Source: an uncultured Candidatus Saccharibacteria bacterium
GTDB taxonomy: Bacteria; Patescibacteriota; Minisyncoccia; Phycocordibacterales; JAKFXT01
Reading direction: 5' to 3'
NCBI GenBank assembly: GCA_964385825.1
Contig: CAYLPX010000003.1
Location: forward strand, 37,559-101,558
Length of the DNA: 64,000 nucleotides
A program made the translations under genes and the position numbers. Below the pieces are notes generated by a model. It ran no database searches and was not told where the DNA came from. It worked only from the letters and a program-made list of their open reading frames with translations. Below, piece by piece: positions 3,026 to 64,000 of this stretch. Positions within the stretch are counted from its first letter, which is position 1. Every line of letters starts with the position of its first letter.

Positions 3026-4339
3026 CTATCTTCCCTCCAAAATATCAATCTGCTTTTGGAACTTATCAGCCAAATCAAGCACTTCATTACCATAGAATGC
3101 GTAGGCTGGCTTTGTCGCATTTTTCCACCCCGCCAGGTATCGCAAAGCAGCTAAACGCTCTGTTGAGCGGACTCCATTTTTAGCGCCATTATCTGTTAGA
3201 AGGAGCGCTGAGGCATAAAACGCATCACGAGGATCCCATGGATTCGGTGGTTTATTGCCGGTAATAGCTGTAATGCGATCTTTGTAGAGTACCCAAGTAG
3301 AAGGGATAAACTGCGCGGGCCCCATGGCTCCCCCATACCCGTACCAAGCTTTTTTAGACACGGGCATTTGATCAGGATCAAGCCCTAACTCCTTACAAAT
3401 CTGCTCGAAGATCGGCTTATCTCGAGTCGGATGCATATCTATATTCCAATTCCCTGTTCCCACGTTCTGTCCAAGATTTGATTCTTCAGCAATAATACCG
3501 AGAAGGAAGGCGGGGCGAATACCTAGCTTTCCCCCAACCTCTTTGGCGTAAGTATAAGCAACCTCAAATGAAATAGCTGCTGATCCTTGAAGTTGGAACA
3601 GTTCCTTTTTTATCTGTGCAGCGGTTAGTTTTTGTTGTGCTAGCACTAACTGGTACTGCTTCTCAAGACCCTTTGAAATTTTCAGAATATTATTCTTTTC
3701 CTTTTCTTGCTGTTCAATCTTTGTTTTCTCAAGCTGTTGAAGATGAAGTAGCTCTGTTTGCTCAGCCCTCTTATCCTCTAGAGTCTGTTTCTCTTCTTCA
3801 GTTTGACTCTTAGTATCACTAACCACACCAACTGAAGTTTGCAGGGAATCCTTGATAGCAACATACGAGTTGGCATCAGAGAAAAAGTTTGCCAAACTTT
3901 TCTTATTTACCAACATTAATTCAACTAAGGAGTAGTCATCGAGCTCCTGTGATTTGCGTAAAATTTGACCTAATGACTCCTTTTCCTTATCGAGCTTATC
4001 AGATAGTACACCGATAGTTTGTTGTTTGGCCCCAATATCATCAGAGAGCTGTTCTATTGTGAGACTGCGAGCTTTTATAGAAAGCTTCGCTTGGCTGATT
4101 TTGGCATCTAAAATAGCAATATCACCAGCCAGGGATTCAGATTCTTTTTGGCGATCCTCTAGAATTTTTTGTTGCTGGGCTATTTGGCTTTCAACATCTG
4201 CTAGCTGTTTTGTTAATTCTGCCCTCCGATCAGCAGAGAGTGATCCTGTGGGAGCGCTCTGCGCCAAAAGATTAAGTGGGGACAAGAGAAAAATACCCAA
4301 AAACCCGAAAATGAAAAAATAAGTATTTTTCATGAACAA
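3026..4339 (-). CDS. Secreted coiled-coil protein with C-terminal lytic murein transglycosylase (MltB/SLT_2-like) domain
   Basis: Signal peptide, then about 230 aa of Q/K/E/L-rich coiled coil. C-terminal domain carries the catalytic ES (IIAEESNLGQ) and the family-3 LT motif GGAMGPAQFIPSTW. Confidence 0.6.
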   Translation of the reverse strand: MFMKNTYFFIFGFLGIFLLSPLNLLAQSAPTGSLSADRRAELTKQLADVESQIAQQQKILEDRQKESESLAGDIAILDAKISQAKLSIKARSLTIEQLSDDIGAKQQTIGVLSDKLDKEKESLGQILRKSQELDDYSLVELMLVNKKSLANFFSDANSYVAIKDSLQTSVGVVSDTKSQTEEEKQTLEDKRAEQTELLHLQQLEKTKIEQQEKEKNNILKISKGLEKQYQLVLAQQKLTAAQIKKELFQLQGSAAISFEVAYTYAKEVGGKLGIRPAFLLGIIAEESNLGQNVGTGNWNIDMHPTRDKPIFEQICKELGLDPDQMPVSKKAWYGYGGAMGPAQFIPSTWVLYKDRITAITGNKPPNPWDPRDAFYASALLLTDNGAKNGVRSTERLAALRYLAGWKNATKPAYAFYGNEVLDLADKFQKQIDILEGR

Positions 4340-5466: not shown

Positions 5467-6330
5467 CTACATTCCATTAAACAACTTAAGTCGTGCGGTA
5501 ACCGTTTCCTGCATAGCTTCAAGTGCCGGTTTCATAATCTTGTACGGTGCTACTTCATCCGGGTTTTCTGCCAAAAACTTTTTCACTGCATCACGATATG
5601 CCACACGAATCTCGGTATTAATATGAACTATGGCAACTCCACTTTTGATAACTCCCGTAAAATCTTCATCCACTGTTCCCGATCCTCCATGAAGTACAAG
5701 GGGAACTCCTGTTGAAAGTGCGATTTCCCGAGTACGTTCAATATTAAGCCGCGGATCTTTCACATTGCGAAGCATGCCATGAATGTTGCCAACAGATGGA
5801 GCAAAAAAGTCTATACCTGTTTCTTCTACAAAGCGCTTGGCCTCCTCAGGGGTAGTAAGATTCTCAAGTGACACCCCTTCTGGTATTTCATCCAGCACCT
5901 TAGAGGAAGTTCCAATATACCCGAGCTCTGCTTCAACCATAATTTCTCTGCCCGAGGCACGCGCATACTCCACACACTGCTTGGCAATTTTTGCATTTTC
6001 TTCAAAAGGAAGTTTAGCCCCATCAAAAATAACTGAATCAAAACCAGCATCTATTACTTCCTTCACTCGCGGAAATGAGTAGGTATGATCAGCGTTGAGA
6101 TAAATAGGATAATTAAATTCCTTTTGAATACTTCGCACCAACGCCACCACCTGTGGAATACCGATAAAATCTCTCTCTCCCTCTGATACCCCGATAATAA
6201 CTGGAACATTCAAACTTTGGCCCGCCCTAAAAATGGCCCACAACCCTTCTAAGTTACTAATATTAAAGTGCCCAACCGCTACTCCACGCGCTTTTGCGTC
6301 AAAGACTGTTTCCTTAAGTGATTTTTGCAT
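5467..6330 (-). CDS. fba: Class II fructose-bisphosphate aldolase
   Basis: GVAVGHFN near the N-terminus, LHGGSG motif, 287 aa: class II FBA/tagatose-bisphosphate aldolase family. Confidence 0.85.
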   Translation of the reverse strand: MQKSLKETVFDAKARGVAVGHFNISNLEGLWAIFRAGQSLNVPVIIGVSEGERDFIGIPQVVALVRSIQKEFNYPIYLNADHTYSFPRVKEVIDAGFDSVIFDGAKLPFEENAKIAKQCVEYARASGREIMVEAELGYIGTSSKVLDEIPEGVSLENLTTPEEAKRFVEETGIDFFAPSVGNIHGMLRNVKDPRLNIERTREIALSTGVPLVLHGGSGTVDEDFTGVIKSGVAIVHINTEIRVAYRDAVKKFLAENPDEVAPYKIMKPALEAMQETVTARLKLFNGM

Positions 6331-6383
6331 ACGTAATATTTTATCACATAAAAAAACCGAATACCTATGATAAAATTAAAACC

Positions 6384-7391
6384 ATGTTCGGCAAAAAAGA
6401 GGAATTTGATTTCGTAGCTGTTGGTGACATTGTCACTGATGCCTTCATTCGTTTGGAAGATGCCAAGGTTCACTGCACTGTAGACCATGAAAATTGCGAA
6501 CTCTCTATGCGCTTTGGGGATAAAATCCCTTATGAATTCGTTGAGGTTATACGGTCAGTAGGTAACAGCCCAAACGCCGCTGTTTCCGCCTCACGCCTCG
6601 GACTTAAAACAGCCCTTGTTAGTGACCTTGGGGATGATGATATCGCCAAAGACTCTATTGCAGCACTTAAGGGTAATGGCGTTGCCACAACTTTTGTTAG
6701 TCTACATGATGGGATGAAGAGTAATTACCATTATGTACTATGGTTTGAAGATGATCGCACTATTCTAGTTAAGCATTTTGACTATCCTTACTCCTTCCCT
6801 GATGTGGGTAATGCTAAGTGGCTTTACCTTAGTTCGCTTGGTGGCACCTCACTTCCCTACCATAAAGAAATCATTGAGCATCTCAAGAAATACCCTGAGA
6901 CAAAATTAGCTTTTCAACCAGGCACCTTTCAAATGAAACAAGGTATCCCAAAACTGCGTGAGATCTACACCAGAACTGAAGTATTTTTCTGCAACGTACA
7001 AGAAGCGCGTCGTATCCTAGGGGTTGAAAATGATCCAGTTGGAAGACTCCTTCGCCTCATCCACAGCGAAGGGCCAAAAAATGTAGTTATCACCGATGGT
7101 AAAGATGGTGCATATGCTTATGATGGGAAAAATGCTTGGTTCATGCCTCCCTACCCTGATCCTAAGCCACCATACGAGCGAACAGGAGCGGGCGATGCTT
7201 TTGCCTCAACCCTAACTTCAGCCCTAGCACTCGGCAAGAGTTTAGACGAAGCTCTAATGTGGGGACCTATTAACTCTATGTCGGTCGTACAACAAATAGG
7301 AGCACAGAAAGGACTCCTTAAGCGGGGAGATCTTGAAAACTTCCTCTCTCACGCACCTGCCAACTACAAACCACAAAAAATTACTGAGTAG
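6384..7391 (+). CDS. PfkB-family carbohydrate kinase (ribokinase-like)
   Basis: C-terminal PfkB signature GAGDAFAS and an N-terminal Gly-rich VAVGDIVTD. Start placed at the ATG at 6384 (MFGKKEEF...) rather than the ORF-track start at 6318, which would overlap fba. Confidence 0.75.
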   Translation: MFGKKEEFDFVAVGDIVTDAFIRLEDAKVHCTVDHENCELSMRFGDKIPYEFVEVIRSVGNSPNAAVSASRLGLKTALVSDLGDDDIAKDSIAALKGNGVATTFVSLHDGMKSNYHYVLWFEDDRTILVKHFDYPYSFPDVGNAKWLYLSSLGGTSLPYHKEIIEHLKKYPETKLAFQPGTFQMKQGIPKLREIYTRTEVFFCNVQEARRILGVENDPVGRLLRLIHSEGPKNVVITDGKDGAYAYDGKNAWFMPPYPDPKPPYERTGAGDAFASTLTSALALGKSLDEALMWGPINSMSVVQQIGAQKGLLKRGDLENFLSHAPANYKPQKITE

Positions 7392-11638: not shown

Positions 11639-12080
11639 CTATTTTATCTATTCTACGAACATGACGTTCGTCACGACCAAAGGGTAATTCGAGCCACATT
11701 TTTACCGCACTTTCAGCTTCAGGTTCATTCAAAAAACGAGCACCGAGGGAAAGAATATTGGCGTTATTGTGTTCACGCGAAAGACGGATAATCTCTTCAG
11801 TTCCGCCATAGTACACCGTAGCGCGTATCCCCTTGTACCGATTTACCACCATGGCTTCGCCTTGCCCTGAGCCACCGAGGATAATCCCGCGCGTTGCATC
11901 AGGATCGCGCAGTACCTCCTCTGCCACAAGCCGAACGTAATCAGGGTAATCATCAATTGGATCAAGTGAGAAAGGACCCTTATCAACCACCGTAAACCCT
12001 AGAGACTTCACATATTCTGCTAAGTGATTCTTAAGTTCAAACCCCGCATGGTCGGACGCTATATAAACAGTTAAAGCCAT
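11628..12080 (-). CDS. rpiB: Ribose-5-phosphate isomerase B
   Basis: RpiB/LacAB family, 150 aa (MALTVYIASDHAGFELK..., GIILGGSGQGEAMVVNRYKGIRA). Confidence 0.85.
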   Translation of the reverse strand: MALTVYIASDHAGFELKNHLAEYVKSLGFTVVDKGPFSLDPIDDYPDYVRLVAEEVLRDPDATRGIILGGSGQGEAMVVNRYKGIRATVYYGGTEEIIRLSREHNNANILSLGARFLNEPEAESAVKMWLELPFGRDERHVRRIDKIDAQ

Positions 12081-53950: not shown

Positions 53951-53997
53951 GCAGAATACTGTAACAAAATTAAGGTGGTTATGCTATGTAAACCCAT

Positions 53998-54025
53998 GAA
54001 AAAGGCCGGATGTCACCGTCCGGCC
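53998..54025 (-). terminator. Rho-independent terminator of the island-1 ORF
   Basis: ggccggatgtcaccgtccggcc (7-bp perfect GC stem) preceded on the plus strand by gaaaaa (a T-run on the minus strand), 18 nt after the ORF stop. Confidence 0.5.
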
Positions 54026-54042
54026 GACCAGCCCCACAACGT

Positions 54043-54264
54043 TCATCCCAGGGCTGCTGCTGTGGCATCCTCGCGGAGACCATGTTGCCTGCCGTATTCC
54101 TCATGCTGGAGGCTACGGTCTTTCCGCGCCTCCCTGAGCGCCAAGAGGAACGCCGTCCTATCTGCAAGGGTCCCGAACTTCAGGGTAATCCTGAGACCGG
54201 TTTCCTCCACAAAGTCGACATCCGGCGGCAAGTTAATCACCGCGGGGCCAGTTTCTTGGTTCAT
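54043..54264 (-). CDS. Small GC-rich ORF P1 (73 aa, unknown function) with strong SD
   Basis: MNQETGPAVINLPPDVDFVEETGLRITLKFGTLADRTAFLLALREARKD... Upstream is CCTAGAGGAGAGTGTCATG (GGAGA, 6 nt, ATG). Codon usage (CTC, CGG, GCG, CCG) is unlike neighbouring genes. Confidence 0.4.
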   Translation of the reverse strand: MNQETGPAVINLPPDVDFVEETGLRITLKFGTLADRTAFLLALREARKDRSLQHEEYGRQHGLREDATAAALG

Positions 54265-54299
54265 GACACTCTCCTCTAGGGTGGGTTCTGATCAATACA

Positions 54300-55151
54300 C
54301 TACAATAAAAGTTCGCTTTTGACTATAGAGACTAATTTTTCTGCCGCTTCCATGTCATTCGCTTGTGGGGATACCTCTGCTATATTATTTTTTACAAAAT
54401 ATTCACCCGATACCCCACTAGCCTTAGGACTACTAGCCAGATACACACTAGTTTCTGCCCCCGCTTTTGGAGAAATAGTAGTAAGAGAAAACAAACCCCT
54501 CACTACTATGTTTGAATTTCTCATTCCCTCTTTTAAAAGATTAGTACGGACTACTCCAGGGTGGAGTGCATTAACTGTCACACCACTTTCCTTTAACTCT
54601 TTAGCAAAGATTTTTGTCCAAAGAATGAGTGCGAGTTTTGAATTACTATAAGCCCTGTAGTGATCAAAATGTTTCCTACTTTCTAAATCACCGAGATTAA
54701 TTTCGCCCTGTGCATGCATAGTAGAAGAAACATTAATAATACGTGCTGGTGCCCCCGCTCTTAAAAGAGGTAGCAGAAGGTTTGTTAGCAGGAATGGGGA
54801 AAGAAAGTTGACCTGCCAGTTAAGTTCATGTTTGTCTCCGGTTTCAATACGCTCTTGCGGCATAACTCCCGCATTGTTAATAAGAACATTGAGTTGTGTA
54901 TATTTTTCTTTAAACTCCTCAACAAATTTCCTTATTGAAGCAAATGAGGCAAGATCTACTAAATAGTATGCTACGTTTGCATTCGGCATTTCTCGCTTCA
55001 TTTCTGTTAGTACACTCTCACCGTCCTCAACGTTGCGCGCAGTAAAAACAACCTGGGCTCCGAGTGTAGCAAGCCCCCGTACCGTTTCTTTACCGATGCC
55101 ACTTGTTCCACCTGTAACAAGGCATACCTTCCCTTCCATACTGTTATTCAT
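54300..55151 (-). CDS. Short-chain dehydrogenase/reductase (SDR) family oxidoreductase
   Basis: TGGTSGIG cofactor motif, NNAG, and YxxxK (YSNSK). Confidence 0.8.
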   Translation of the reverse strand: MNNSMEGKVCLVTGGTSGIGKETVRGLATLGAQVVFTARNVEDGESVLTEMKREMPNANVAYYLVDLASFASIRKFVEEFKEKYTQLNVLINNAGVMPQERIETGDKHELNWQVNFLSPFLLTNLLLPLLRAGAPARIINVSSTMHAQGEINLGDLESRKHFDHYRAYSNSKLALILWTKIFAKELKESGVTVNALHPGVVRTNLLKEGMRNSNIVVRGLFSLTTISPKAGAETSVYLASSPKASGVSGEYFVKNNIAEVSPQANDMEAAEKLVSIVKSELLL

Positions 55152-55183
55152 ATATAGATACTACTATACTTAAAGGTCTATAG

Positions 55184-56605
55184 TCACTCTTCATCTTCCA
55201 AAATAGTATATTGATCTACCTCCTCACGAGTACGTCTCACGTACACCACAGCCCCTGAAACCACTCCACAAAAAGCCAATACTCCCATGAGCCAAACCCA
55301 TGTTTTAGACTGATCTTTTTTGGTCTCTTTATCTTTGGGCACTACCTCTTGTGACTCCAGTGCATTTACTACAGTTGCTACATTACTTGAAGAAATAGTT
55401 TTACTTTTAGCTTGTATTTTTGCTAAAGCATTAGAAGTATTCGCTACGGATGCTTGTATTCCTATAGTTCTACTCGGCACAGGAAGGCCACTCGCATAAA
55501 AAAGAGTAGGTGTCATGTTTCCTAAAAACTGACTAACACTGTTGGCAATTTTTATAGTCTTATTTGCCCCAATGAGCGTTCCACTCGGGACTAAGAACTT
55601 TGTATCGCCCGCTTCTAATTGGAAGCGTGAAATATCAAGTTCATTTGTTCCATTATTTTTTATCTCAGTATACCCCTCTTTCCCAGGTATAAACTGTGAA
55701 ATGCTAAGTGTAGGATCTACTACTTTTATGAGTACCCTATCCCCCTGCGAATATTCGCCCGATGTCACGTCAAGGGTAACAATATACTCTCCCAGAAAAT
55801 GATACGTGTGAGCTACCTGCCTTCCCTCCCTAACTTCCCCATCACCAAAATTCCAAACAAAATGGGCATTTGGCAACGGTTCTTTATTAACCCCAAGTGC
55901 GCTGCCCACAAAAACAGTCTCGCTCCCTAAAAGAGTGGACCTATCCTTGCCTGCATCAGGAAAAATTTGTTGTTCGGTTTTATAGTGGCTAGCAACAACT
56001 TCACCACTTCCCCCGCCTAAAGAAGTTGAGTTATTGCTTGAGGTACTGGTAGTATCAGTAGAAGTTGTAGTAGTACTCGCAGGCGGAGTTATACCGGGAC
56101 CTGAAGTATTCATGGCTCCAGGAGTTGGGTTCCCACTTTTAAAACCGCCCCCATTTCTATTCAAACTCATACCATCCCCCGCGCCACCCGTATCACTACT
56201 ATATGAAACTGTATCCATATCAGCATCTCCACTACGAAGTACCAATGTCTCGCCAGTATTTGAAAGCGAAAAAGAACTATCAAAAATAGTTCCGCTAAAC
56301 CCAGGATTATCTGCTAGAAACTTAGACGGGGTATCGGCTACCACCGCATAACTATTCGCAGGGACTACCGCAGAACCCTGGCTTACTTCGAGCTTATGAT
56401 TAGTTTCTGCCTCACGCAGTGTCCACTTAGACATATCTACCGCCTCTCCTCCATCATTGTAAAGCTCTATCCACTCTCTGCCGGTGTCAGTCCCCGGAAG
56501 ATCGTACATGATTTCATTAATCAAAACACTCGCTCCGGCAAACTTGAAAAACAAAAAATAACAAAGAAAAATAGAGAATACGCGTATACCCTTAATTAGT
56601 TTCAT
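55184..56605 (-). CDS. Surface protein with lamin-tail domain (LTD) and PKD domain, N-terminal signal peptide and C-terminal TM anchor
   Basis: LTD signature VLINEIMYDLPGTDTGREWIELYN. PKD-like FVWNFGDGEVREGRQVAHTYHFLGEYIVTLDVTSG. Ser/Thr-rich linker. C-terminal TM WVWLMGVLAFCGVVSGAVVYV. Start set at Met 56605, which gives a canonical signal peptide; the ORF-track start is 56653. Confidence 0.6.
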   Translation of the reverse strand: MKLIKGIRVFSIFLCYFLFFKFAGASVLINEIMYDLPGTDTGREWIELYNDGGEAVDMSKWTLREAETNHKLEVSQGSAVVPANSYAVVADTPSKFLADNPGFSGTIFDSSFSLSNTGETLVLRSGDADMDTVSYSSDTGGAGDGMSLNRNGGGFKSGNPTPGAMNTSGPGITPPASTTTTSTDTTSTSSNNSTSLGGGSGEVVASHYKTEQQIFPDAGKDRSTLLGSETVFVGSALGVNKEPLPNAHFVWNFGDGEVREGRQVAHTYHFLGEYIVTLDVTSGEYSQGDRVLIKVVDPTLSISQFIPGKEGYTEIKNNGTNELDISRFQLEAGDTKFLVPSGTLIGANKTIKIANSVSQFLGNMTPTLFYASGLPVPSRTIGIQASVANTSNALAKIQAKSKTISSSNVATVVNALESQEVVPKDKETKKDQSKTWVWLMGVLAFCGVVSGAVVYVRRTREEVDQYTILEDEE

Positions 56606-58487
56606 CATGCTCAACATGAAGCATAGCGCGAAGTTTATCTTCAGGAATTTCATTCACCACTCTTCCTACTTCTTCTTTAGAAGTAGTTAAGTTTTCCCTA
56701 ACTGGTTCTTTAGTTTCTTCTCCACTCTCCCCATCATCCATAACTATTTCTTCCTTTTTCTTAAGTGACGCCAGAACTGCAGCGAGAGCTTGCTTATTAG
56801 CGGTATTAGTATTCTGTCGGCGAGAACCTTCTTCCCTCCGCCCTTCCACAGGGGGCCGATCTCTTTTCACCTCTTCTTTTTTTTCTGCCCTGGGTACTGA
56901 TACTTGAGGCACAGCTTCCGGCGCCTTATGCGTCTGTGTTTCTTTAACCACAGGCTTCTCCTCTTGGTGTTCTTCGGGAATAGTGGCCCCTACAACACTT
57001 GCCAACGTTTGACGAAGCCCTTCAAGATGAAGATGTGAGCCAACTTCCTTTATTTTTTCCTCAACCACATGACTTAAGGTTTCGTGGTTTTCCTTTTTTG
57101 GTCCTGCTTTTCTATCCTCTCTTCGTGGATGCTCGCGCCCCTCCTGTTGTCGCTCCTCAAATTTATTCTCCTTCTTCTCTCCCTTTGGCGGTACGCTTGT
57201 ACTTAATGTCTGCTTTACAATATCCTCCTCCACGACGCTACGCTTTTCACCAAACTGCTCTTGTGAAGTGCGAATTACTTCTTCTTTATATGAAATAACT
57301 GGCTTTGCAACTGGGGGCATAGTAACAGCAGAAAAAGGTTGCGAGCCCACTCCATCAATCATGAGCTTGAGGTATATTTGCGCGAATCCAAGATTCACAA
57401 AGTCTTCTGCGATAAATGTGGGCATGAATTCTTTCTCGAAAATCTCTGCATCGAATGGTCCCACCCGAAATACAATCATGGTCCCCACGTTACCAAAAAT
57501 AGCTGCTCGTACCTCCTCTGACATTTGTTCAATGTATTGATGCGCCACTGTGAGGTTTAATTTGTACTTACGAGCTTCTGAAAGAATGTCAGCAAAACTC
57601 TCATTAGCAAAAGACTGGAACTCATCTACATAGAGATAAAAATTAGGAAGTCGTGCCATCCGTGATTCTGGTACATCAGCGCGACTCATAGCTGCTAGAT
57701 AAATCTTAGTAATGAGCATGCTTCCCAAAAGGTTGGCATTGCTCTCTCCTACACGACCTTTAGAAAGATTGATGATCAGAATTTTTTTCTCGTCCATCAT
57801 CCTTCGAAGATCAAAAGAAGATTGTGGCTGGCCAATAATATTACGAATGAGAGGATTACTGGTGAACTGCCCCACCTTGTTTTGAATAGCCGGTGTCGCT
57901 TCTGCGGCAAATCGATCGGTGTACTTTGCAAACTCATCTACCCAAAAAGACTTCACTGTCGGATCAGTTATATTATCCACCACTTTTTTACGGAAATCCT
58001 TGTCAGAGAGCATCTTGTTAATAGCAAGAAATGTAGCTCCTGGATACTCAAGTAGAGCAAGGAGTGTATTGGAGAGAATGTACTCCATACGAGCACTCCA
58101 AGCATCCACCCAGATTTTCTTAAAGGCGCTCATAAGCCCCGATACCACTAAATGTCGCTTATCTATACCAACATCTTCCATCACATTGAAAGCAATCGGG
58201 TACTCCATATCAAAAGGAGCAAAGTAGAGTACGTCCTTGATGCGGTGCTCTGGTACGTAATCAAGTAGGAGTTCTGCTGTCTTGCCGTGTGGATCTATAA
58301 AAGCCAGCCCCTCACCATTCTGAATATCTTGAATGGCCATGTTTTCAAGAAGTGTAGACTTCCCCATCCCCGTCTTACCAATAACATACGTATGACGAGT
58401 TCTGTCTTTCGCTTTAATACCAAAAGGTACTCGACGATTGCGAGCGTCTGTAGTTGCAAAATAGGTTATGCGATTTTCATCAGGCAT
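56592..58487 (-). CDS. TraG/TraD/VirD4-family (type IV secretion coupling-protein-like) soluble P-loop ATPase with long charged C-terminal tail
   Basis: Walker A GKTGMGKST and IDPHGK (cf. TrwB/TraD ..DPKG..). Walker B YLYVDEFQ. About 250-aa E/K/R-rich low-complexity C-terminus. Start set at ATG 58487 (MPDENRITYF...); the longer ORF-track extension runs into GC island 2. Confidence 0.5.
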   Translation of the reverse strand: MPDENRITYFATTDARNRRVPFGIKAKDRTRHTYVIGKTGMGKSTLLENMAIQDIQNGEGLAFIDPHGKTAELLLDYVPEHRIKDVLYFAPFDMEYPIAFNVMEDVGIDKRHLVVSGLMSAFKKIWVDAWSARMEYILSNTLLALLEYPGATFLAINKMLSDKDFRKKVVDNITDPTVKSFWVDEFAKYTDRFAAEATPAIQNKVGQFTSNPLIRNIIGQPQSSFDLRRMMDEKKILIINLSKGRVGESNANLLGSMLITKIYLAAMSRADVPESRMARLPNFYLYVDEFQSFANESFADILSEARKYKLNLTVAHQYIEQMSEEVRAAIFGNVGTMIVFRVGPFDAEIFEKEFMPTFIAEDFVNLGFAQIYLKLMIDGVGSQPFSAVTMPPVAKPVISYKEEVIRTSQEQFGEKRSVVEEDIVKQTLSTSVPPKGEKKENKFEERQQEGREHPRREDRKAGPKKENHETLSHVVEEKIKEVGSHLHLEGLRQTLASVVGATIPEEHQEEKPVVKETQTHKAPEAVPQVSVPRAEKKEEVKRDRPPVEGRREEGSRRQNTNTANKQALAAVLASLKKKEEIVMDDGESGEETKEPVRENLTTSKEEVGRVVNEIPEDKLRAMLHVEHDETN

Positions 58488-58550
58488 GAAAAAAAGAAAT
58501 GAACGTAAGTACCTAAAGTATAGTCTAATTTGAAGTAGTTGTCTCCAAAT

Positions 58551-58576
58551 GAAAAGCCCGCAGCCGAAGCTGCGGG
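58551..58576 (-). terminator. Rho-independent terminator of the island-2 ORF
   Basis: cccgcagccgaagctgcggg (8-bp perfect stem, cgaa loop) preceded on the plus strand by gaaaag (T-run on the minus strand), 18 nt after the ORF stop. Confidence 0.55.
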
Positions 58577-58594
58577 TTCCGAAACACCAAGGCC

Positions 58595-58819
58595 CTACTG
58601 CGGCCGCATGGGAACGTACGCGCCGTTCCTGAAACACCCCTTCGTGAAATTCGTCACCGGCATTGCGCGGAGCTCCGCCTCGGCAATGCCAGCCGTCGTC
58701 GGATTACCGCTGAACCGCCGCCTTGCCCGGCGCAGCGCCACCTTCTTCTTGTGGAGCGTAGCGCCATTCACCGGCCGCCGGTTTTGCTTTCCGTCGTTTC
58801 CAGGTTGCTTCAAGGGCAT
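58595..58819 (-). CDS. Small GC-rich ORF P2 (74 aa, basic, unknown function) with strong SD
   Basis: MPLKQPGNDGKQNRRPVNGATLHKKKVALRRARRRFSGNPTTAGIAEAELRAMPV... Upstream is CCTCTAGGAGACTTACATG, the same GGAGA-N6-ATG geometry as P1. Confidence 0.4.
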   Translation of the reverse strand: MPLKQPGNDGKQNRRPVNGATLHKKKVALRRARRRFSGNPTTAGIAEAELRAMPVTNFTKGCFRNGAYVPMRPQ

Positions 58820-58901
58820 GTAAGTCTCCTAGAGGAACAATGCAAAACCCCCATGGTTTCGCATCGCGATATGGTAGCAGAAGACCTACACCTACACAAG
58901 T

Positions 58902-59171
58902 CTACAGCTCTTCTTTTTGGGTAACCAAAGGCTCTGTAACTCCTTCGCCTGGAGTCTCCACATGAGTTACTCCGCCAACTACCTTTTTCATTTTTTTACC
59001 ACCAACACTAGTTGTCTTCCTTTTTCCATGCCTTTCTCTGTAGCTAATGTACGCAATTATTACCCCAAAAATGATATAGAAAGGATTTTTCCAGGCATTA
59101 GGGATAGAAACAAAGGGGGTGGCTAACACCACAATACCTATGGCCAATATAAAAACGAGATTCTTGCTCAT
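58902..59171 (-). CDS. Small membrane protein (89 aa)
   Basis: Two TM helices, then a basic/Gly-rich tail. Confidence 0.4.
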   Translation of the reverse strand: MSKNLVFILAIGIVVLATPFVSIPNAWKNPFYIIFGVIIAYISYRERHGKRKTTSVGGKKMKKVVGGVTHVETPGEGVTEPLVTQKEEL

Positions 59172-59271
59172 AAACCTAGTATAAAATAATTAATCATTTT
59201 TTCCAATCTTACTATTACCCACCGTATAATTGTGTATTATTCAACCTGTACGATACAATTATTACATATAT

Positions 59272-59871
59272 ATGTTTCCTCTCTTTAGACCCTTTAGAAA
59301 AAAGACCTCAGAACGTGGCTTTACTTTAGTGGAACTCATGGTTGTAGTAATGATTGTAGCTATTATTGCAAAAATAGTACTTTCGTCAGTCAACCAAAGC
59401 CGAGCTATAACACGCGATAAAATAAGAAAAGATGCCTTAGTCCAACTTAAAATGGCACTAGAGGCTTACTTTGACGCTAATGGCTCATACCCAAGTACCG
59501 GTGATACCTATAATGCGAGCACCAATACATGGACACTTACGTGGTACACCTCAGAACCAGGATTCCCCAACCTTTCAAATGGCCCAGGTAATAATGGAAT
59601 TTGGATTCCCGGGTTAGCCCCTACGTATATATCTGCGCTCCCCCGTGACCCCGATAGTTCGAAAGTGGGACCAGGTGTTTGTACATCACTTACCAACCCA
59701 AAAGCTAGTTACCTGTACACTTCAGATGGACGTCATTACTCAGTTGGCTCAATCTGTTCTGGTGAAACTGGTTTTAGAATCACTGATCAATTCGCTATCG
59801 ATACGCCAACCATTCATCGCTGGCAATACATGTGGACCATCTGTAATGATCGAATTTCCTGCGCTTGGTAA
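59272..59871 (+). CDS. Type IV pilin / pseudopilin-like protein (prepilin N-terminal methylation motif)
   Basis: GFTLVELMVVVMIVAIIA: a class III signal peptide with Gly at -1, Phe at +1 and the conserved Glu at +5. Start set at ATG 59272. A TATAAT hexamer lies at 59225-59230. Confidence 0.65.
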   Translation: MFPLFRPFRKKTSERGFTLVELMVVVMIVAIIAKIVLSSVNQSRAITRDKIRKDALVQLKMALEAYFDANGSYPSTGDTYNASTNTWTLTWYTSEPGFPNLSNGPGNNGIWIPGLAPTYISALPRDPDSSKVGPGVCTSLTNPKASYLYTSDGRHYSVGSICSGETGFRITDQFAIDTPTIHRWQYMWTICNDRISCAW

Positions 59872-59872
59872 T

Positions 59873-60550
59873 TTATTGGAGTCCCTCAACCATTACCACA
59901 AACTCCCCTTTTTGTTTTATTTCATTATCCTTGAAATAGGTAAAAACTTCTTCAGCACTTCCACTAACTATTTCCTCAAACATTTTTGTGAGCTCTTTAG
60001 CCACTACTACTTTTCGAGTAGGCTCTACTGCTTCCTCTAATTTTTCTAATGTTTTTATGAGACGATGCGTTGATTCATAAAAAGCAACCGTTCTCCCTGA
60101 TATTGCTATTTCTTTAAACAATGTTTCTCTCCCTTTCTTATGTGGTAAAAATCCCAAAAAAAGAAATTGATCTGCCGGAATGCCCGAAATAGATAGTGCA
60201 CTGATAAGCGCTGAAGGTCCGGGGATAACTACCACTTCAATACCGGCCTCGCGAGCTGCCGCCACAAAACGAAATCCTGGATCAGAAATCGCAGGAGTCC
60301 CCGCATCAGTCACCAGGGCGATACTTTCATATTCATCAAATAGCCCAGTAATCTCTTCGCTTAATTCTCCCTCTTTGTGCGCATCCAATCTTTTGGTTTT
60401 TGTTTTGATTTCATAGCGATCTAACAACTTCTTCGTCACTCGTGTGTCTTCGCAGAGTATAAGATTTACCTCCTTAAGCACACGAAATGCCCGAAGAGTA
60501 ATATCCTCCATATTCCCTATAGGGGTCCCAATTACATAAAGTCTTAACAT
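59873..60550 (-). CDS. rsmI: 16S rRNA (cytidine1402-2'-O)-methyltransferase
   Basis: Tetrapyrrole-methylase fold with the RsmI N-terminus (YVIGTPIGNMEDITLRA...LCEDTR). Confidence 0.85.
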   Translation of the reverse strand: MLRLYVIGTPIGNMEDITLRAFRVLKEVNLILCEDTRVTKKLLDRYEIKTKTKRLDAHKEGELSEEITGLFDEYESIALVTDAGTPAISDPGFRFVAAAREAGIEVVVIPGPSALISALSISGIPADQFLFLGFLPHKKGRETLFKEIAISGRTVAFYESTHRLIKTLEKLEEAVEPTRKVVVAKELTKMFEEIVSGSAEEVFTYFKDNEIKQKGEFVVMVEGLQ

Positions 60551-60555
60551 CCCCG

Positions 60556-60583
60556 AACTCTATACAAATAAAACAGCGGGGGC
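60556..60583 (-). terminator. Rho-independent terminator of P3a
   Basis: gcgggggcaagcccccgc (7-bp G/C stem) with a T-run on the minus strand (plus-strand aaataaaaca), 13 nt after the stop. Confidence 0.5.
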
Positions 60584-60595
60584 AAGCCCCCGCAC

Positions 60596-60859
60596 CTATG
60601 GAGTAGCATCGAGCTCCGCCCTCATTCCGGACGATAACCCCCCACTCCCACCGCCGTTCATGAGCCTCCCCCAATCCATAGCAAAACCATGAGCTACGAA
60701 CTTATTGCCATGTGTTTGATCAAAAAACTTTCGAACAACAGTGTAGAGGGGCGAAGAACAATCAAGAAGCGCGTAGCCAGACCCGCGTTCGTCATCGCAG
60801 ATCCGCACTAAGTTATAGGGAGACTCCGGTCCCCATGAGATTCCTGGAGCATTTTTCAT
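60596..60859 (-). CDS. Small GC-rich ORF P3a (87 aa, Gly-rich C-terminus, unknown function)
   Basis: MKNAPGISWGPESPYNLVRICDDERGSGYALLDCSS...GGGSGGLSSG. A G-rich SD-like stretch (AGGGGAACAGCATG) precedes the start. Confidence 0.35.
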   Translation of the reverse strand: MKNAPGISWGPESPYNLVRICDDERGSGYALLDCSSPLYTVVRKFFDQTHGNKFVAHGFAMDWGRLMNGGGSGGLSSGMRAELDATP

Positions 60860-60968
60860 TGCTGTTCCCCTGCAAAATTATCTTTTTAAAAATTAGCACA
60901 TGAAAACATAATTGACCACAAGAAGGAGTGCCCAGTATAGTATGAATCCAGTTCTTTTGGAGATTGCA

Positions 60969-61196
60969 ATGGAAGAATCCATCCTCGCCGACAGGGTAAC
61001 CCCCTTTCAGCGAAAAGTGGCAAACCTCGCCGAACTCACCGTGTTTTTTGGTGGAGCCAAGGTTTGGACAGCGTGGGAGCCAATCCTTGAGGGCCTTGCG
61101 CTTTCACATGGCGTCGATCAAGAAGAAGCCTCGGCCTGTTTCTTCCTAGCGGTCGCAAGCTTCAGCGAAAACGGCCTCCCCGACGAAGCCCTCTAG
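60969..61196 (+). CDS. Small GC-rich ORF P3b (75 aa from MEESIL..., unknown function)
   Basis: Start chosen at ATG 60969 because it is preceded by GGAGATTGCAATG, the same GGAGA-N5-ATG geometry as P1 and P2. The ORF-track start is 60912 and an alternative ATG lies at 60942. Confidence 0.35.
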   Translation: MEESILADRVTPFQRKVANLAELTVFFGGAKVWTAWEPILEGLALSHGVDQEEASACFFLAVASFSENGLPDEAL

Positions 61197-61215
61197 GGCT
61201 TCTGCCGCCCAACCT

Positions 61216-61247
61216 GCGCCCGAGAAACTCGGGCGCTTATTACTTTA
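61216..61247 (+). terminator. Rho-independent terminator of P3b (abuts the murC stop)
   Basis: gcgcccgagaaactcgggcgc (9-bp perfect stem) followed by ttattacttta. Confidence 0.5.
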
Positions 61248-62538
61248 TGAGACTCTCCCCTACCTTATATATATCCCCTGCGCCCATAGTGATAATGACC
61301 ACATTACTATCAGCATTTTTTGTTTTGAGGCGCTCTACGATTTCTTCTAAACTATCAAAGCTTTTAGCAGTAGTTTTTTGGGCTATTTCCTCCACCAACA
61401 TTTCTGAAGTAATACTCTCATCCTTTAATTCTCTCGCTGCATAGATAGGAGCAAGAAGAACAATATCAGCCATACTTAAGGCTTCTATAAAATCCTGCTT
61501 TAAAAGCTTAGTGCGCGAATACAGATGCGGTTGGAACACTACAACAAGTTCCTTACCCACAAACTTCTCACGTGCTGCTTGCAATGTTGCCGCTATTTCT
61601 GTTGGATGATGCGCATAGTCGTCATATATAAGAGCACCGCCTTCTGTTTCTCCTTTGTACTCAAACCGTCGCCAGGTGCCAGAAAAATTCTGCAGGGACT
61701 CTTCGGCTGTTTGTTTCTTGATACCGAGTACTTCCCCTACCGCAAGCACCGCTCCGGCATTACTACGATTATGAGCACCAGGCACTTTAAGCTCCATTTC
61801 ATTTTGTATATAGGACGTGTAATCAATTACTTTGCATTTTGCCTCTGCTACTACTTCACTCAAATTTGGAGCCATAGGATTACAAATGAGAAAACCATCT
61901 TCCGGAATCTTCGCCACCAATTCACCAAAAGCACTTTGGATATCAGAAATATCTTTGTAGTAATCTAAATGATCTCCGTCAATGTTAAGTATGACTAGAA
62001 TTTTCGGAGTGAAGTTAAGAAAATGGCGCATATACTCATCGGCCTCAACTACAAAGTATTTACTCTTGCCGGCTCTAAAGTTACTTTTAGTTTTAGCTCG
62101 AATAGAACCAACTACCACCGTTGGATCAAACTCTGCATCTTCTAGTACATCGGCAAGCATGGCTGTTGTAGTTGTTTTTCCATGCGCACCCGAAACTGCA
62201 ATGAGGTAATGCTCGCTAGCTACTTTTCCAAGTGCCTCAAAATATGAAAGTGCTGGAACCCCTAATTCCTTCGCCCGTACTCGTTCCACATTATGTTCTT
62301 TAACTGAATCGCTATAGACAATAAGATCTGCGTCGCTCGGTACATTAACTGCAACTTGGCCAATAAGAACCTCAACCCCTCTTCCCCTTAGCATTTCTAC
62401 AGTTTTTGACTCAGCAGAATCAGACCCACTAATTACTTTCCCTTGTTCTAAAAAAAGTTGAGCGAGTGCAGACATCCCCACCCCCCCAATACCAATGAAA
62501 TATATTTTATTTATTTTTTGAAAGTCTGTATTGGTCAT
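61240..62538 (-). CDS. murC: UDP-N-acetylmuramate--L-alanine ligase
   Basis: IYFIGIGGVGMSALA N-terminal Rossmann motif and the GKTTTT P-loop of Mur ligases. 432 aa. Confidence 0.9.
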   Translation of the reverse strand: MTNTDFQKINKIYFIGIGGVGMSALAQLFLEQGKVISGSDSAESKTVEMLRGRGVEVLIGQVAVNVPSDADLIVYSDSVKEHNVERVRAKELGVPALSYFEALGKVASEHYLIAVSGAHGKTTTTAMLADVLEDAEFDPTVVVGSIRAKTKSNFRAGKSKYFVVEADEYMRHFLNFTPKILVILNIDGDHLDYYKDISDIQSAFGELVAKIPEDGFLICNPMAPNLSEVVAEAKCKVIDYTSYIQNEMELKVPGAHNRSNAGAVLAVGEVLGIKKQTAEESLQNFSGTWRRFEYKGETEGGALIYDDYAHHPTEIAATLQAAREKFVGKELVVVFQPHLYSRTKLLKQDFIEALSMADIVLLAPIYAARELKDESITSEMLVEEIAQKTTAKSFDSLEEIVERLKTKNADSNVVIITMGAGDIYKVGESLIK

Positions 62539-63009: not shown

Positions 63010-64000
63010 CTATAATCTACCAACTATCCTATTGAACTGCTCGCCGCGGTCATACTCGTTTTTGAAAAGTCCAAATGAGGCACAGGCAGGACTTAAAAGC
63101 ACTATATCTCCCTTCTTGGCTAACTCCTTAGCTTCTTCGAGCGCATATTTCATAGAGTTATATTCAACTGCTGGAACTTTCATCTTACTCCACATAACCT
63201 TAAGCCGCTCAGTCCCTGTACCAAATAGGAAAATAACCGCCTTACAATACTTCGGGATTATTTTAAGTAGCTCATCAAAAGAAAGATTCTTATCGCTCCC
63301 TCCCATAATGAGAACGATGTTCTTCTTTTTGATGTCTCCTAATGCACGCAGTGCTGCGATGGTTGCATCCGGTGTAGTAGCTGTTGTGTCATTATAATAA
63401 CTAACACCTTTCACCGCTCGTACGAACTCAAGACGCCCTGGAACTCCCACAAAACTTTTCACTCCTTTTTTAATAACACTATCGTTAATACCAAGCCTGC
63501 GAGCAACAATTACTGCTATAGCTACGTTATAGAGGTTATGTGCACCTTTAAGTTTGGTAGGGAAATCTTTAACCGAAGTTGGAGCAGTTATAAAGTTTCC
63601 CTTAAACTCCTTCATCATAGGAGCAACCTGCTTTCCCACCACACACCAATCACCCTCTTTCTGGTACATAAAAATGTTAGCTTTATCTTTGAAGTAAAGA
63701 CTTCTATCATTTTTGTAATAGGCCAAATGATCGTCCATAAAGGTCGTGAAGACGGCCACTTGCGGACTTATTTCACTATCACCGAAACCTTGCAGTTGCC
63801 ATGAATCAAGCTCAAAAACAGCGTAGTCAGCACTTTTTGCTTTAGGAAGTAGAGCGAGGGTTGAAACACCAACTACATTCCCACCAAGCAAGACTTTTTT
63901 CTTTGCAGTGGTTAAGATGTGATAAATAAGATGTGTTACGGTGGACTTACCCCGTGTTCCCGTAATTCCTATAAGCGGAACATCAGTAAGTTTCGCAAAA
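63010..64000 (-). CDS. murD: UDP-N-acetylmuramoylalanine--D-glutamate ligase (5' end outside window)
   Basis: The frame stays open to the window edge. Upstream residues include the Mur-ligase P-loop (IGITGTRGKST), and the C-terminal domain is MurD-like. Confidence 0.8.
   Translation of the reverse strand, partial: FAKLTDVPLIGITGTRGKSTVTHLIYHILTTAKKKVLLGGNVVGVSTLALLPKAKSADYAVFELDSWQLQGFGDSEISPQVAVFTTFMDDHLAYYKNDRSLYFKDKANIFMYQKEGDWCVVGKQVAPMMKEFKGNFITAPTSVKDFPTKLKGAHNLYNVAIAVIVARRLGINDSVIKKGVKSFVGVPGRLEFVRAVKGVSYYNDTTATTPDATIAALRALGDIKKKNIVLIMGGSDKNLSFDELLKIIPKYCKAVIFLFGTGTERLKVMWSKMKVPAVEYNSMKYALEEAKELAKKGDIVLLSPACASFGLFKNEYDRGEQFNRIVGRL

Follow-up and report, generated by a model that had tools for sequence, protein, structure and literature searches.

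Four small genes in G+C-rich islands

The window, i.e. the whole stretch of 64 000 nucleotides analysed here, has a mean G+C content of 0.414 (sd 0.054) in 150-nt windows, and values of 0.62 or more occur in three strong islands only. A sequence-only reading of this DNA had described G+C-rich islands with small ORFs in an AT-rich genome. The 150-nt windows confirmed the islands, three of them as strong; that of P3 is much weaker (ORF G+C 0.52), and the genome, at about 41% G+C, is only moderately AT-rich. Each island holds one small ORF, and these four ORFs, P1, P2, P3 and P4, encode 73, 74, 87 and 75 amino acids, respectively. The features are as follows.

53964-54290, strong G+C island, maximum 0.65 (150-nt windows)
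54004..54025, minus strand, intrinsic terminator of P1, 7-bp GC stem and T-run, 17 nt past the stop codon
54043..54264, minus strand, P1, 73-aa orphan ORF, G+C 0.59, GC1/2/3 0.66/0.45/0.66
54270..54274, minus strand, GGAGA of P1, 5 nt upstream of the ATG
58521-58878, strong G+C island, maximum 0.67 (150-nt windows)
58557..58576, minus strand, intrinsic terminator of P2, 8-bp stem with UUCG loop, 18 nt past the stop codon
58595..58819, minus strand, P2, very basic 74-aa orphan ORF, pI 11.8, G+C 0.63, GC3 0.79
58825..58829, minus strand, GGAGA of P2, 5 nt upstream of the ATG
58842..58862, minus strand, conserved 8-bp hairpin between the gene for an 89-aa membrane protein and the GGAGA of P2
60521-60726, weaker G+C island (P3), 0.57 (150-nt windows)
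60576..60593, minus strand, intrinsic terminator of P3, 7 GC pairs, 2 nt past the stop codon
60596..60859, minus strand, P3, 87-aa ORF, G+C 0.52
60865..60870, minus strand, GGGGAA of P3, a weaker SD-like motif, 5 nt upstream of the ATG
60877..60941, both strands, back-to-back promoter-like sites of the divergent P3/P4 pair
60906-60877, minus strand, promoter-like site of P3, TTTTCA-18-GATAAT
60912-60941, plus strand, promoter-like site of P4, TTGACC-18-TATAGT, the top match of the region (10/12), conserved in the related locus L014
60959..60963, plus strand, GGAGA of P4, 5 nt upstream of the ATG, identical in L014
60966-61300, strong G+C island, maximum 0.62 (150-nt windows)
60969..61196, plus strand, P4, 75-aa acidic helical protein, G+C 0.57
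61216..61236, plus strand, intrinsic terminator of P4, 9-bp stem, 19 nt past the stop codon

Of 71 genes called crudely in the window, all but P1-P4 have a GC3 of 0.28-0.43; that of P1-P4 is 0.49-0.78, which bears out the deviant codon usage claimed earlier. The four proteins show no relationship among themselves (phmmer E>0.2), as had also been stated, and P1 and P2 do flank the SDR / LTD-PKD / VirD4-like block, which measures 4.19 kb. A fifth gene of the same type lies just beyond the window edge. The GGAGA reported for three of the four ORFs is present in P1, P2 and P4, with a spacer of 5 nt throughout rather than of 5 or 6, and the weaker SD-like stretch of the fourth is the GGGGAA-N5-ATG of P3. 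Terminators had been placed 13-20 nt past the ORFs, which holds for P1, P2 and P4 (17-19 nt) and not for P3 (2 nt). A strict scan of the 64 kb for perfect GC hairpins with a T-run returned six terminators, four of which are those following P1-P4. Because a 1-nt indel separates the window from L014 upstream of P4, the ATG at 60942 is not its start codon. The AlphaFold model of P4 is a three-helix bundle (pLDDT 77).

The host accounts for the outlier status of the islands, since its 16S rRNA has no CCUCC, its A+T-rich genes are mostly leaderless and strong terminators are rare in it. The 3′ end of the organism's own 16S rRNA, encoded 5 kb beyond the window, reads ...GCTGTTCGTGGATTATTTCAAGAG; CCTCC is absent from this end and from the spacer, and the CCUCC anti-SD is likewise absent in 36 related loci. 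Loss of the anti-SD has been reported for a subgroup of Parcubacteria (PMC9297842). None of the other 17 JGI-called gene starts in a 20-kb stretch has an SD. The earlier description of the genome as SD-less stands, its own 16S rRNA being without CCUCC. In many of these 17 starts, TATAGT/TATACT boxes precede the ATG by 6-14 nt. Lacking GGAG and showing a -10-like box between -20 and -11, the ordinary genes of this organism look leaderless.

Conservation at fixed sites

In the sister genomes L014 and L094, G+C-rich islands with homologous ORFs, GGAG motifs and terminators are found at the same positions as in the window. The P1 homologues (L014, 10245-10472; L094, 4790-5020) lie at the same site, after an SDR gene and before an epimerase gene; phmmer gives E=5×10−9 for L014 against L094 and 5×10−3 for the window against L094. 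They are preceded by GGGAGAG-N4 (L014) and GGAGG-N5 (L094), and the terminator hairpin is near-identical in L014. P2 has homologues in L013 (97%), L014 (5678-5875; 40-44%) and L094 (159-377), each directly upstream of a VirD4-like gene and aligned with in-frame gaps. Here the SD-like motifs are GGGAG-N8 in L014 and GGAGA-N5 in L094, and the terminator stem is kept in L014. The 8-bp hairpin upstream of the P2 GGAGA recurs in L094, and between the window (GCGAAACC..GGTTTTGC) and L014 (GCGAAGCC..GGTTTCGC) it shows a compensatory change. For P3, a full-length homologue with 45% identity (P0006, E=1.9×10−9) lies between murC and rsmI in L174; it has GGAGA-N6-ATG and a terminator, yet a normal G+C of 0.38. 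Normal composition in a relative, which the earlier reading itself had named as speaking against its interpretation, was thus found for P3 only, the islands being still G+C-rich in L014 and L094.

What the common synteny demonstrates is that P1-P4 are inherited vertically at fixed intergenic sites common to sister Paceibacteria/Parcubacteria genomes; since the sites are shared by L014 and L094, any import must be old. The new kind of miniature mobile cassette inserting at intergenic sites that had been proposed is therefore very improbable. It drew on the common outward format and similar size of the units (73-87 aa) and on their intergenic location, with two of them flanking a 4.2-kb block; one may add that the small ORFs occupying the slot ahead of the VirD4-like gene are unrelated from lineage to lineage, and that L013 compared with the window is a recombination mosaic. 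But no terminal, inverted or direct repeats, target duplications or shared ends were found at the islands, every unit is single-copy, Pfam detects no integrase, transposase or recombinase in about 30 kb around, the hairpins are plain terminators, not attC-like, and L014 and L094 have homologous contents at the same sites. The sharpness of the compositional jumps could also suggest that the assembly is chimeric or contaminated with DNA of a high-G+C organism. The chance of this is practically negligible: JGI, ENA and Logan assemblies contain the locus in 12 contigs or more, with an identity of 99.97% or higher and the same junctions, so that it is not a chimera, and the sister genomes show the same architecture.

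Protein-coding genes rather than RNAs

In A+T-rich genomes, G+C-rich intergenic islands are often RNAs. The islands could accordingly be structured non-coding RNAs or cis-regulatory leaders (attenuators), with the ORFs as by-products of G+C-rich sequence, all the more as each of P1, P2 and P3 is followed, beyond its terminator, by a gene in the same direction, the islands hold several open frames, and the folding z-scores of whole islands are -1.6 to -2.7. These z-scores are, however, non-significant once the terminators are removed (+0.4 to -1.7 for the ORF bodies, with a single exception at -2.6), and past the terminators the downstream genes still have conserved promoter-like boxes. Rfam has no match to the P1-P4 islands, even at E≤10, and a tRNA search of them found none. 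Substitutions follow codon periodicity in P4, where differences at the three codon positions number 18/15/35, and in P3 (34/30/57). P4 is 68% identical to its L014 homologue, with a pN of 0.21 against a pS of 0.65; P2 of the window differs from that of L013 by four synonymous and two non-synonymous changes; and the start-aligned frames of P1 and P2 are open across three diverged lineages. An RNA or leader function in place of coding is thus very unlikely. The islands contain genuine single-copy small protein-coding genes of four unrelated orphan families, each with a short 5′ leader. The earlier view of them as expression-ready micro-genes is supported. P1-P4 evolve faster than the neighbouring genes; they are vertically inherited, fast-evolving orphan protein genes, neither mobile cassettes nor RNAs.

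P1-P4 are probably small accessory or regulatory proteins. The toxin, immunity or anti-defence roles put forward for them found no backing, searches of Pfam, NCBIfam, PHROGs and PADLOC being all empty. Many Parcubacteria have a small variable ORF where P2 lies, immediately before the VirD4-like ATPase gene.

A clade-wide association of GGAG with G+C content

A positioned GGAG, i.e. one starting at -14 to -8, was scored in 2.2 Mb of related Parcubacteria loci. It precedes 25.7% of G+C-rich small ORFs (n=113, a set inflated because G+C-rich DNA, being poorer in stop codons, is favoured when long ORFs are picked), as compared with 0.6% of conserved small ORFs of normal G+C (n=155) and 2.4% of ORFs of at least 150 aa (n=1604); Fisher's test gives p=2.5×10−11. 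The positional peak is sharp, at -10. Among ORFs of at least 121 aa, GGAG reaches 18-21% at dGC≥0.08 versus 1.5-2%. Terminators follow 55% of the G+C-rich GGAG-bearing ORFs versus 4% of the conserved normal-G+C small ORFs. One G+C-rich member with GGAG is the nucleoside phosphorylase PpnP (Pfam E=6×10−26), which shares about 40% identity with a protein of Acinetobacter. For 91 of the 113 G+C-rich small ORFs the other loci yielded no relatives, and members of the class also adjoin rRNA genes.

Origin of the genes

We consider, with a probability a little above even, that P1-P4 are old horizontal acquisitions with retained donor-type expression signals. The acquisition would have preceded the split of the window, L014 and L094 lineages, the donors would have been SD-using bacteria or elements of higher G+C, and SD, G+C-rich codons and hairpin terminator would have been kept, so that the 'format' would be the standard bacterial one in exotic surroundings and not that of a cassette system. 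That G+C excess, GGAG and terminators go together across the clade, the PpnP gene included, is most simply explained by a foreign origin. To this extent the earlier idea of import holds; no donor or phage homologue came to support it. For P1, P2 and P4 none was found among 5.8 billion protein clusters or in viral contigs, and for P3, 1.84 billion cluster representatives searched exhaustively with HMMER contained a sole relative, which lies in a Parcubacteria contig of identical synteny. Against import also stand a GGAG with no known reader when the anti-SD is absent, and the G+C of P3, raised in the window and not in L174, for which one old import gives no simple explanation. Moreover, synonymous sites are saturated between the window and L014 (pS 0.65-0.85), and still none of the three lineages has lost the high GC3 (0.53-0.79), or any homologue its GGAG; to call the genes pure relics is therefore insufficient, and something maintains these features.

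An alternative is a native expression class maintained by selection, with no foreign origin needed: a leadered monocistronic minority in anti-SD-less, leaderless Parcubacteria, with a positioned GGAG whose reader would be not the 16S tail but a protein, some other RNA or an mRNA structure, and with G+C-rich bodies maintained for an mRNA-level property. The conservation of GGAG with the same spacing in every P1-P4 homologue despite saturated neutral divergence, a GC3 0.2-0.45 higher than in neighbouring genes in three lineages, the sharp peak at -10, the failure of the searches to yield donors, and the retention of GGAGA and terminator by the L174 homologue of P3 at normal G+C all fit. This explanation is nevertheless unlikely, though a serious contender: the association of G+C with GGAG extends to larger ORFs and to a common bacterial enzyme, PpnP, a pattern that resembles imports; no GGAG reader is known; RNA structure in the ORF bodies does not exceed the expectation from composition; and the isolation of 91 of 113 members is expected of accessory imports. 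Another way to explain SD motifs conserved where the ribosome has no anti-SD would be T-DNA-like transfer to a host or partner cell and expression there, hence a host-type promoter, SD, codon usage and terminator. The P4 promoter is of the textbook sigma-70 type, and VirD4-like, LTD-PKD and pilin genes lie nearby. We hold this to be highly improbable, as the genes lie scattered between housekeeping genes and neither border nor oriT-like repeats accompany them, other members of the class sit beside rRNA genes, one of them encodes a salvage enzyme of use to the symbiont itself, and direct evidence of transfer is absent.

Comparison with known systems

In the SD-blind Bacteroidia, rpsU of Flavobacterium johnsoniae is reported as an SD-bearing exception (PMC13000453), and is a parallel to a few genes with a strong positioned SD where the others make no use of it; in both cases a few SD genes in a lineage that does not use SD would suggest a special regulatory use. 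In Bacteroidia the anti-SD is canonical and sequestered, whereas the 16S tail here has no CCUCC, and the exception is a ribosomal protein instead of orphan small proteins. Integron gene cassettes are likewise compact units of a single ORF each, whose cargoes are unrelated and whose 3′ ends form hairpins. Unlike them, P1-P4 have no attC, integrase, attI or array; each has a promoter of its own, they are spread over conserved sites, and they end in GC stems followed by T-runs. Islands of G+C-rich structured RNA resemble them in their sharp 300-nt intergenic G+C peaks ending in terminators, and differ in that P1-P4 have no RNA family match or excess folding energy and show coding-type substitution patterns.

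Horizontally acquired genes and ORFan islets of atypical composition are the subject of the amelioration concept of Lawrence and Ochman. P1-P4 share with such islets a local G+C and codon usage that depart strongly from those usual in the genome, a patchy, lineage-restricted distribution and the lack of recognisable families, and PpnP, one member of the clade-wide set, is an ordinary gene of bacteria. They differ in that the units are very small (one gene of 73-87 aa) with several close together, that they are kept at fixed sites through saturating divergence, and that GC3 and GGAG are undecayed in a recipient with no anti-SD. The normal G+C of the P3 homologue in L174 is as amelioration predicts.

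G+C-rich islands with one compact gene each

The mean G+C content of the 64-kb window is 0.414 (sd 0.054, 150-nt windows), and only three stretches reach at least 0.62 in such windows: 53964-54290, 58521-58878 and 60966-61300. A fourth and weaker island lies at 60521-60726. Each island holds one compact ORF:

P1: 54043-54264, minus strand, 73 aa
P2: 58595-58819, minus strand, 74 aa
P3: 60596-60859, minus strand, 87 aa, in the weaker island
P4: 60969-61196, plus strand, 75 aa

The start of P4 is placed at 60969 because a 1-nt indel lies between an upstream ATG (60942) and the GGAGA motif. A previous, sequence-only reading had described all the islands as far richer in G+C than their surroundings; the sliding-window analysis bears this out for P1, P2 and P4, but the island of P3 is weak. 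GC3 is 0.49-0.79 in P1-P4 as compared to 0.28-0.43 in the other 67 of the 71 genes crudely called in the window, a deviation in composition and codon usage from the recipient genome of the kind expected after horizontal transfer. The four proteins, as had been claimed, proved unrelated to one another in pairwise comparison.

All four ORFs have a purine-rich, GGAGG-like motif 5-10 nt before the start, as do Shine-Dalgarno (SD)-led genes, and it is conserved in the homologues found on three related contigs (L014, L094 and L174). The motif is GGAGA-N5-ATG for P1, P2 and P4, with a constant spacer where N5 or N6 had been noted, and GGGGAA-N5-ATG for P3. At their 3′ side are perfect GC stems of 7-9 bp followed by T-runs. 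A strict scan found six perfect GC-hairpin and T-run terminators in the window, four of which follow P1-P4; the distance of 13-20 nt from the stop codon put forward initially fails for P3, whose terminator begins 2 nt after the stop. No SD is present at any of the 17 other JGI-called gene starts in this stretch of the window, many of which have TATAGT or TATACT 6-14 nt before the ATG; promoter-like boxes also precede P3, P4 and P5, a fifth such gene located outside the window. Between the gene for an 89-aa protein and the GGAGA of P2, there is a conserved hairpin (58842-58862, minus strand), which is present in L094 and in which a compensatory change of A-U to G-C is seen in L014; it may be the terminator of the upstream gene or a 5′ stabiliser of the P2 mRNA.

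Conservation at fixed sites and coding status

P1-P4 are genuine small genes for orphan proteins, each with a terminator of its own; they are inherited vertically and evolve fast. The organism belongs to the Parcubacteria/Paceibacteria, and two sister genomes, represented by contigs L014 and L094, encode VirD4-like proteins respectively 80% and 67% identical to that of the window; L094 was, among the matches listed, the sole useful relative added by a metagenome scan with the VirD4-like protein as anchor. The gene order in L014 is murC-P4-rsmI-89aa-P2-VirD4-LTD-SDR-P1-epimerase, and its G+C islands fall exactly on the three homologous sites. The P2 and P1 sites are found in L094 and are G+C-rich there as well. 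Between the window and L014, the terminator and downstream promoter regions at the flanks hardly differ in sequence.

Amino-acid identity between the window and L014
P4: 68%
P2: 40-44%
P1: 28%
Neighbours with recognised (Pfam) domains: 52-95%
89-aa membrane protein: 42%

Homology of P1 is supported by E-values of 5e-9 (L014 vs L094) and 5e-3 (window vs L094). In L014 and L094, no homologue has lost its hairpin terminator or its GGAG, which is located 4-8 nt from the ATG; the GC3 of these homologues is 0.53-0.79 vs 0.26-0.43 for the neighbouring genes. P3 is not present in L014; an exhaustive search found a homologue of 84 aa (45% identity) in L174, between murC and rsmI, which has GGAGA-N6-ATG and a terminator, yet a normal G+C content of 0.38 and a GC3 of 0.31.

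Comparison of orthologues reveals purifying selection with codon periodicity. For P4, pN is 0.21 vs a pS of 0.65 and differences at the three codon positions number 18/15/35; the corresponding counts are 34/30/57 for P3, and the periodicity is weaker for P1 (32/35/45) and P2 (34/24/41). Between P2 and a 97% identical variant in contig L013, four changes are synonymous and two non-synonymous. Furthermore, the start-aligned frames of P1 and P2 are open in three deeply diverged lineages; from base composition, we estimate at about 1/10 the chance that a given 70-codon frame stays open at around 60% G+C.

The L013 contig (SRR32910815) appears as a recombination mosaic when compared to window positions 58458-60690: the 89-aa gene and P2 are 97% identical and rsmI 80%, with a pilin gene in between that cannot be aligned (43% amino-acid identity). 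This pattern points to an allele replacement at the pilin gene and to a recent exchange spanning P2. In L015, a contig from a more distant relative, runs of N cover the SDR-epimerase junction (11677-11766), directly after a AAGGAGACGAT motif, and, between murC and rsmI, some of a 262-aa ORF (4130-4230).

Artefact, structured RNA or mobile element

An assembly artefact is rejected, the locus being at least 99.97% identical in at least 12 independently assembled contigs (JGI, ENA, Logan); records of P1 exist for 16 contigs and, at NCBI, for a 104.5-kb contig. Structured RNAs could also give compact G+C-rich islands, and the folding z-scores of the whole islands are indeed low (-1.6 to -2.7), because it is mostly the terminators that contribute. 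ORF bodies resemble control genes, with z-scores of +0.4 to -1.7 and one of -2.6, none of them significant. No island matches Rfam at the gathering score (only noise appears at E≤10), and ARAGORN finds no tRNA or tmRNA in them; a known structured RNA is thus rejected as well.

The proposal of a new miniature mobile cassette had to be abandoned. A repeat search found neither terminal nor direct repeats flanking the islands, only short matches at chance level; no recombinase domain exists among the genes called over about 30 kb; each unit is single-copy, the units are unrelated and their sites are fixed in the sister genomes. This rejects an element of the MITE or IS type. As for integrons, a cassette has an attC at its 3′ end, whereas P1-P4 end in a GC stem and a T-run and share no inverted-repeat sites, and an integron has an adjacent intI, an attI and a tandem array, whereas P1-P4 are dispersed among housekeeping genes.

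An SD-like motif in a host lacking the anti-SD

Contig L175, from the same strain, runs 10 kb beyond the window and includes the organism's own 16S rRNA gene (L175 4200-5692, about 5 kb past window position 64000). The 16S tail (L175 5644-5700) ends ...GGAUUAUUUCAAGAG, its 3′ end being GTCGTAACAAGGCACGGGTAGCGGAAGCTGTTCGTGGATTATTTCAAGAG. The CCUCC anti-SD, complementary to the SD-like motif, is lacking from it; a displaced anti-SD in the 16S-tRNA spacer of L175 can be rejected too, since CCTCC is absent there. The same replaced tail is found in 36 out of 36 related loci in which the 3′ end of the 16S gene is included. A subgroup of Parcubacteria was already reported to have lost the anti-SD motif (PMC9297842).

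Upstream of 1358 long ORFs of the clade, GGAG is depleted and enrichment is confined to -10-like boxes at -20 to -11; the same scan found no motif complementary to the new 16S tail. When TATAAT, TATAGT and TATACT are searched in the window and related loci, 219 of 472 matches fall into the single 10-nt bin from -20 to -11 relative to the ATG. Box position and GGAG depletion together indicate that the ordinary genes have mostly leaderless or very short-leader mRNAs. The genome is therefore SD-less, as was first supposed, both in its 16S rRNA and at the 17 other starts. It is because of this background, a host without anti-SD whose ordinary genes are mostly leaderless, that P1-P4 look exotic; their format would otherwise be the ordinary bacterial one.

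A minority class of genes across the clade

The initial observation of the islands, confirmed for the window by G+C content, GC3, GGAGA and terminators, extends to the clade: in a data set of 2.2 Mb (162 related loci and the window), some G+C-rich genes, a minority made up mostly of small orphans, have strong terminators and a GGAG at a sharply defined position.

ORFs with GGAG starting at -14 to -8
ORFs of at least 150 aa (n = 1604): 2.4% (background 2.3%)
Conserved small ORFs of normal G+C (n = 155): 0.6%
Small intergenic ORFs at least 0.10 above locus G+C (n = 113): 25.7% (background 2.2%)

For the G+C-rich small ORFs the GGAG peak is sharp at -10 (odds ratio 53, p = 2.5e-11). A terminator lies within 60 nt of 55% of the G+C-rich ORFs bearing GGAG vs 4% of the conserved small genes of normal G+C, and the link between G+C and GGAG persists among ORFs of at least 121 aa (18-21% vs 1.5-2%). 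One member has a known identity: a PpnP (pyrimidine/purine nucleoside phosphorylase) gene after murC in contig L028 (2440-2760), which has a G+C content of 0.50 in a locus of 0.37, reads AAGGAGA-N5-ATG at its start and is followed by a terminator. It is likely a horizontal acquisition and provides a named example of the P1-P4 gene format.

P5: L175 3503-3727 (island 3440-3775), between the secF terminator and the 16S gene, outside the window, 74 aa

P5 is Cys-rich (MICDTHGVRECTCRCHTHPEMRCGGCC...) and has a TATAAT box, GAGGA-N8-ATG and a strong terminator.

Many relatives have a G+C-rich small ORF with a positioned GGAG between the 16S gene and the first tRNA gene that follows it (a tRNA-Ile in the typed cases): L121 4183-4485, L172 587-883, L081 527-709, L080 1399-1656, L037 458-688, L120 3103-3333, L051 4713-4895 and L065 836-1117. 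According to Rfam these ORFs are outside the rRNA; L121/L172 and L120/L081 are homologous pairs of membrane-type proteins. In L175, past the 16S gene and its terminator, the region 5990-6480 contains a single intact tRNA gene (6290-6362) together with tRNA-like pieces that recur: two copies of a stretch of about 38 nt lie near 6021 and 6210, and the tRNA 3′ half is repeated near 6437. Such pieces may represent tRNA copies that are split, interrupted by an intron or decayed.

Origin of the genes and persistence of GGAG

Word-index and exhaustive HMMER searches with P1-P4 returned only the proteins themselves, their matches in the sister genomes and repeat-protein artefacts (P0007-P0009), and no relatives were found in viral contigs. 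These results are weakened by inconsistent public gene calls, due to which such genes are easily missed or mis-stranded in databases: JGI calls give an antisense 71-aa ORF in place of P2 (58595-58819) and extend P4 to 84 aa by starting it at the upstream ATG (60942), and Logan calls give P2.

An import, as the sequence-only reading proposed, is plausible and best accounts for the format of the genes; the source would be SD-using bacteria or elements of higher G+C. It would, however, be old, predating the split between the window, L014 and L094. For none of P1-P4 are the closest relatives found in a different lineage. The genes might then be pure relics of such an import, but this is countered by the lack of donors and by the GGAG and high GC3 having outlasted saturated neutral divergence, which together argue that both features are maintained by selection. 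One speculative idea is that these anti-SD-less Parcubacteria with mostly leaderless mRNAs possess a separate group of leadered, G+C-rich genes in which selection preserves the GGAG. The motif would then be recognised not by the 16S tail but by an initiation factor, an RNA, or the ribosomes of a partner cell receiving the genes or mRNAs. We consider this idea rather improbable; if true, it would imply that CPR bacteria have a second route of translation initiation or a system for expression across cells.

The residual puzzle is thus a conserved SD-like motif without an anti-SD. In the literature, we found no published account of the consequences of anti-SD loss for Parcubacteria genes, nor of this gene class. 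If the genes are import relics, horizontal acquisitions in CPR genomes could be detected by a simple sequence signature, and the decay of expression signals would have a clock; if they are functional, the use of an SD-like motif by an anti-SD-less ribosome becomes a testable question.

Possible functions and the slot upstream of the VirD4-like gene

Roles in toxicity, immunity or anti-defence had been suggested, but neither P1-P5 nor their homologues match any entry in Pfam, NCBIfam, PHROGs or PADLOC. Type II toxin-antitoxin, defence and anti-defence systems were rejected for this lack of a family match and for gene arrangement, P3 and P4 being divergent, with no operon, and P1 and P2 solitary. 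P2 is strongly basic (pI 11.8). The predicted structure of P4 is a three-helix bundle (pLDDT 77) with no significant fold match in the PDB, the best being a KorA-like HTH at an E-value of about 1. The single-sequence model of P1 (pLDDT 60) is too poor for use; judged by eye from its sequence, P1 is a candidate RHH-like protein.

These findings draw attention to small proteins left unannotated, or inconsistently annotated, beside a conserved locus of VirD4-like, pilin and surface-protein genes. P2 occupies a slot that lies 85-125 nt before the VirD4-like ATPase gene and is separated from it by a terminator. At about 90 loci, this slot usually contains an ORF of 50-110 aa followed by a terminator (e.g. 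L019 9675-9908, L103 8260-8466, L018 160-381 and L167 3573-3770). The ORFs are often 0.1-0.2 above the G+C content of their locus; 58 out of 93 are singletons and most are mutually unrelated, and a short motif resembling xDILG and Arg-rich C-termini are common to some of them.
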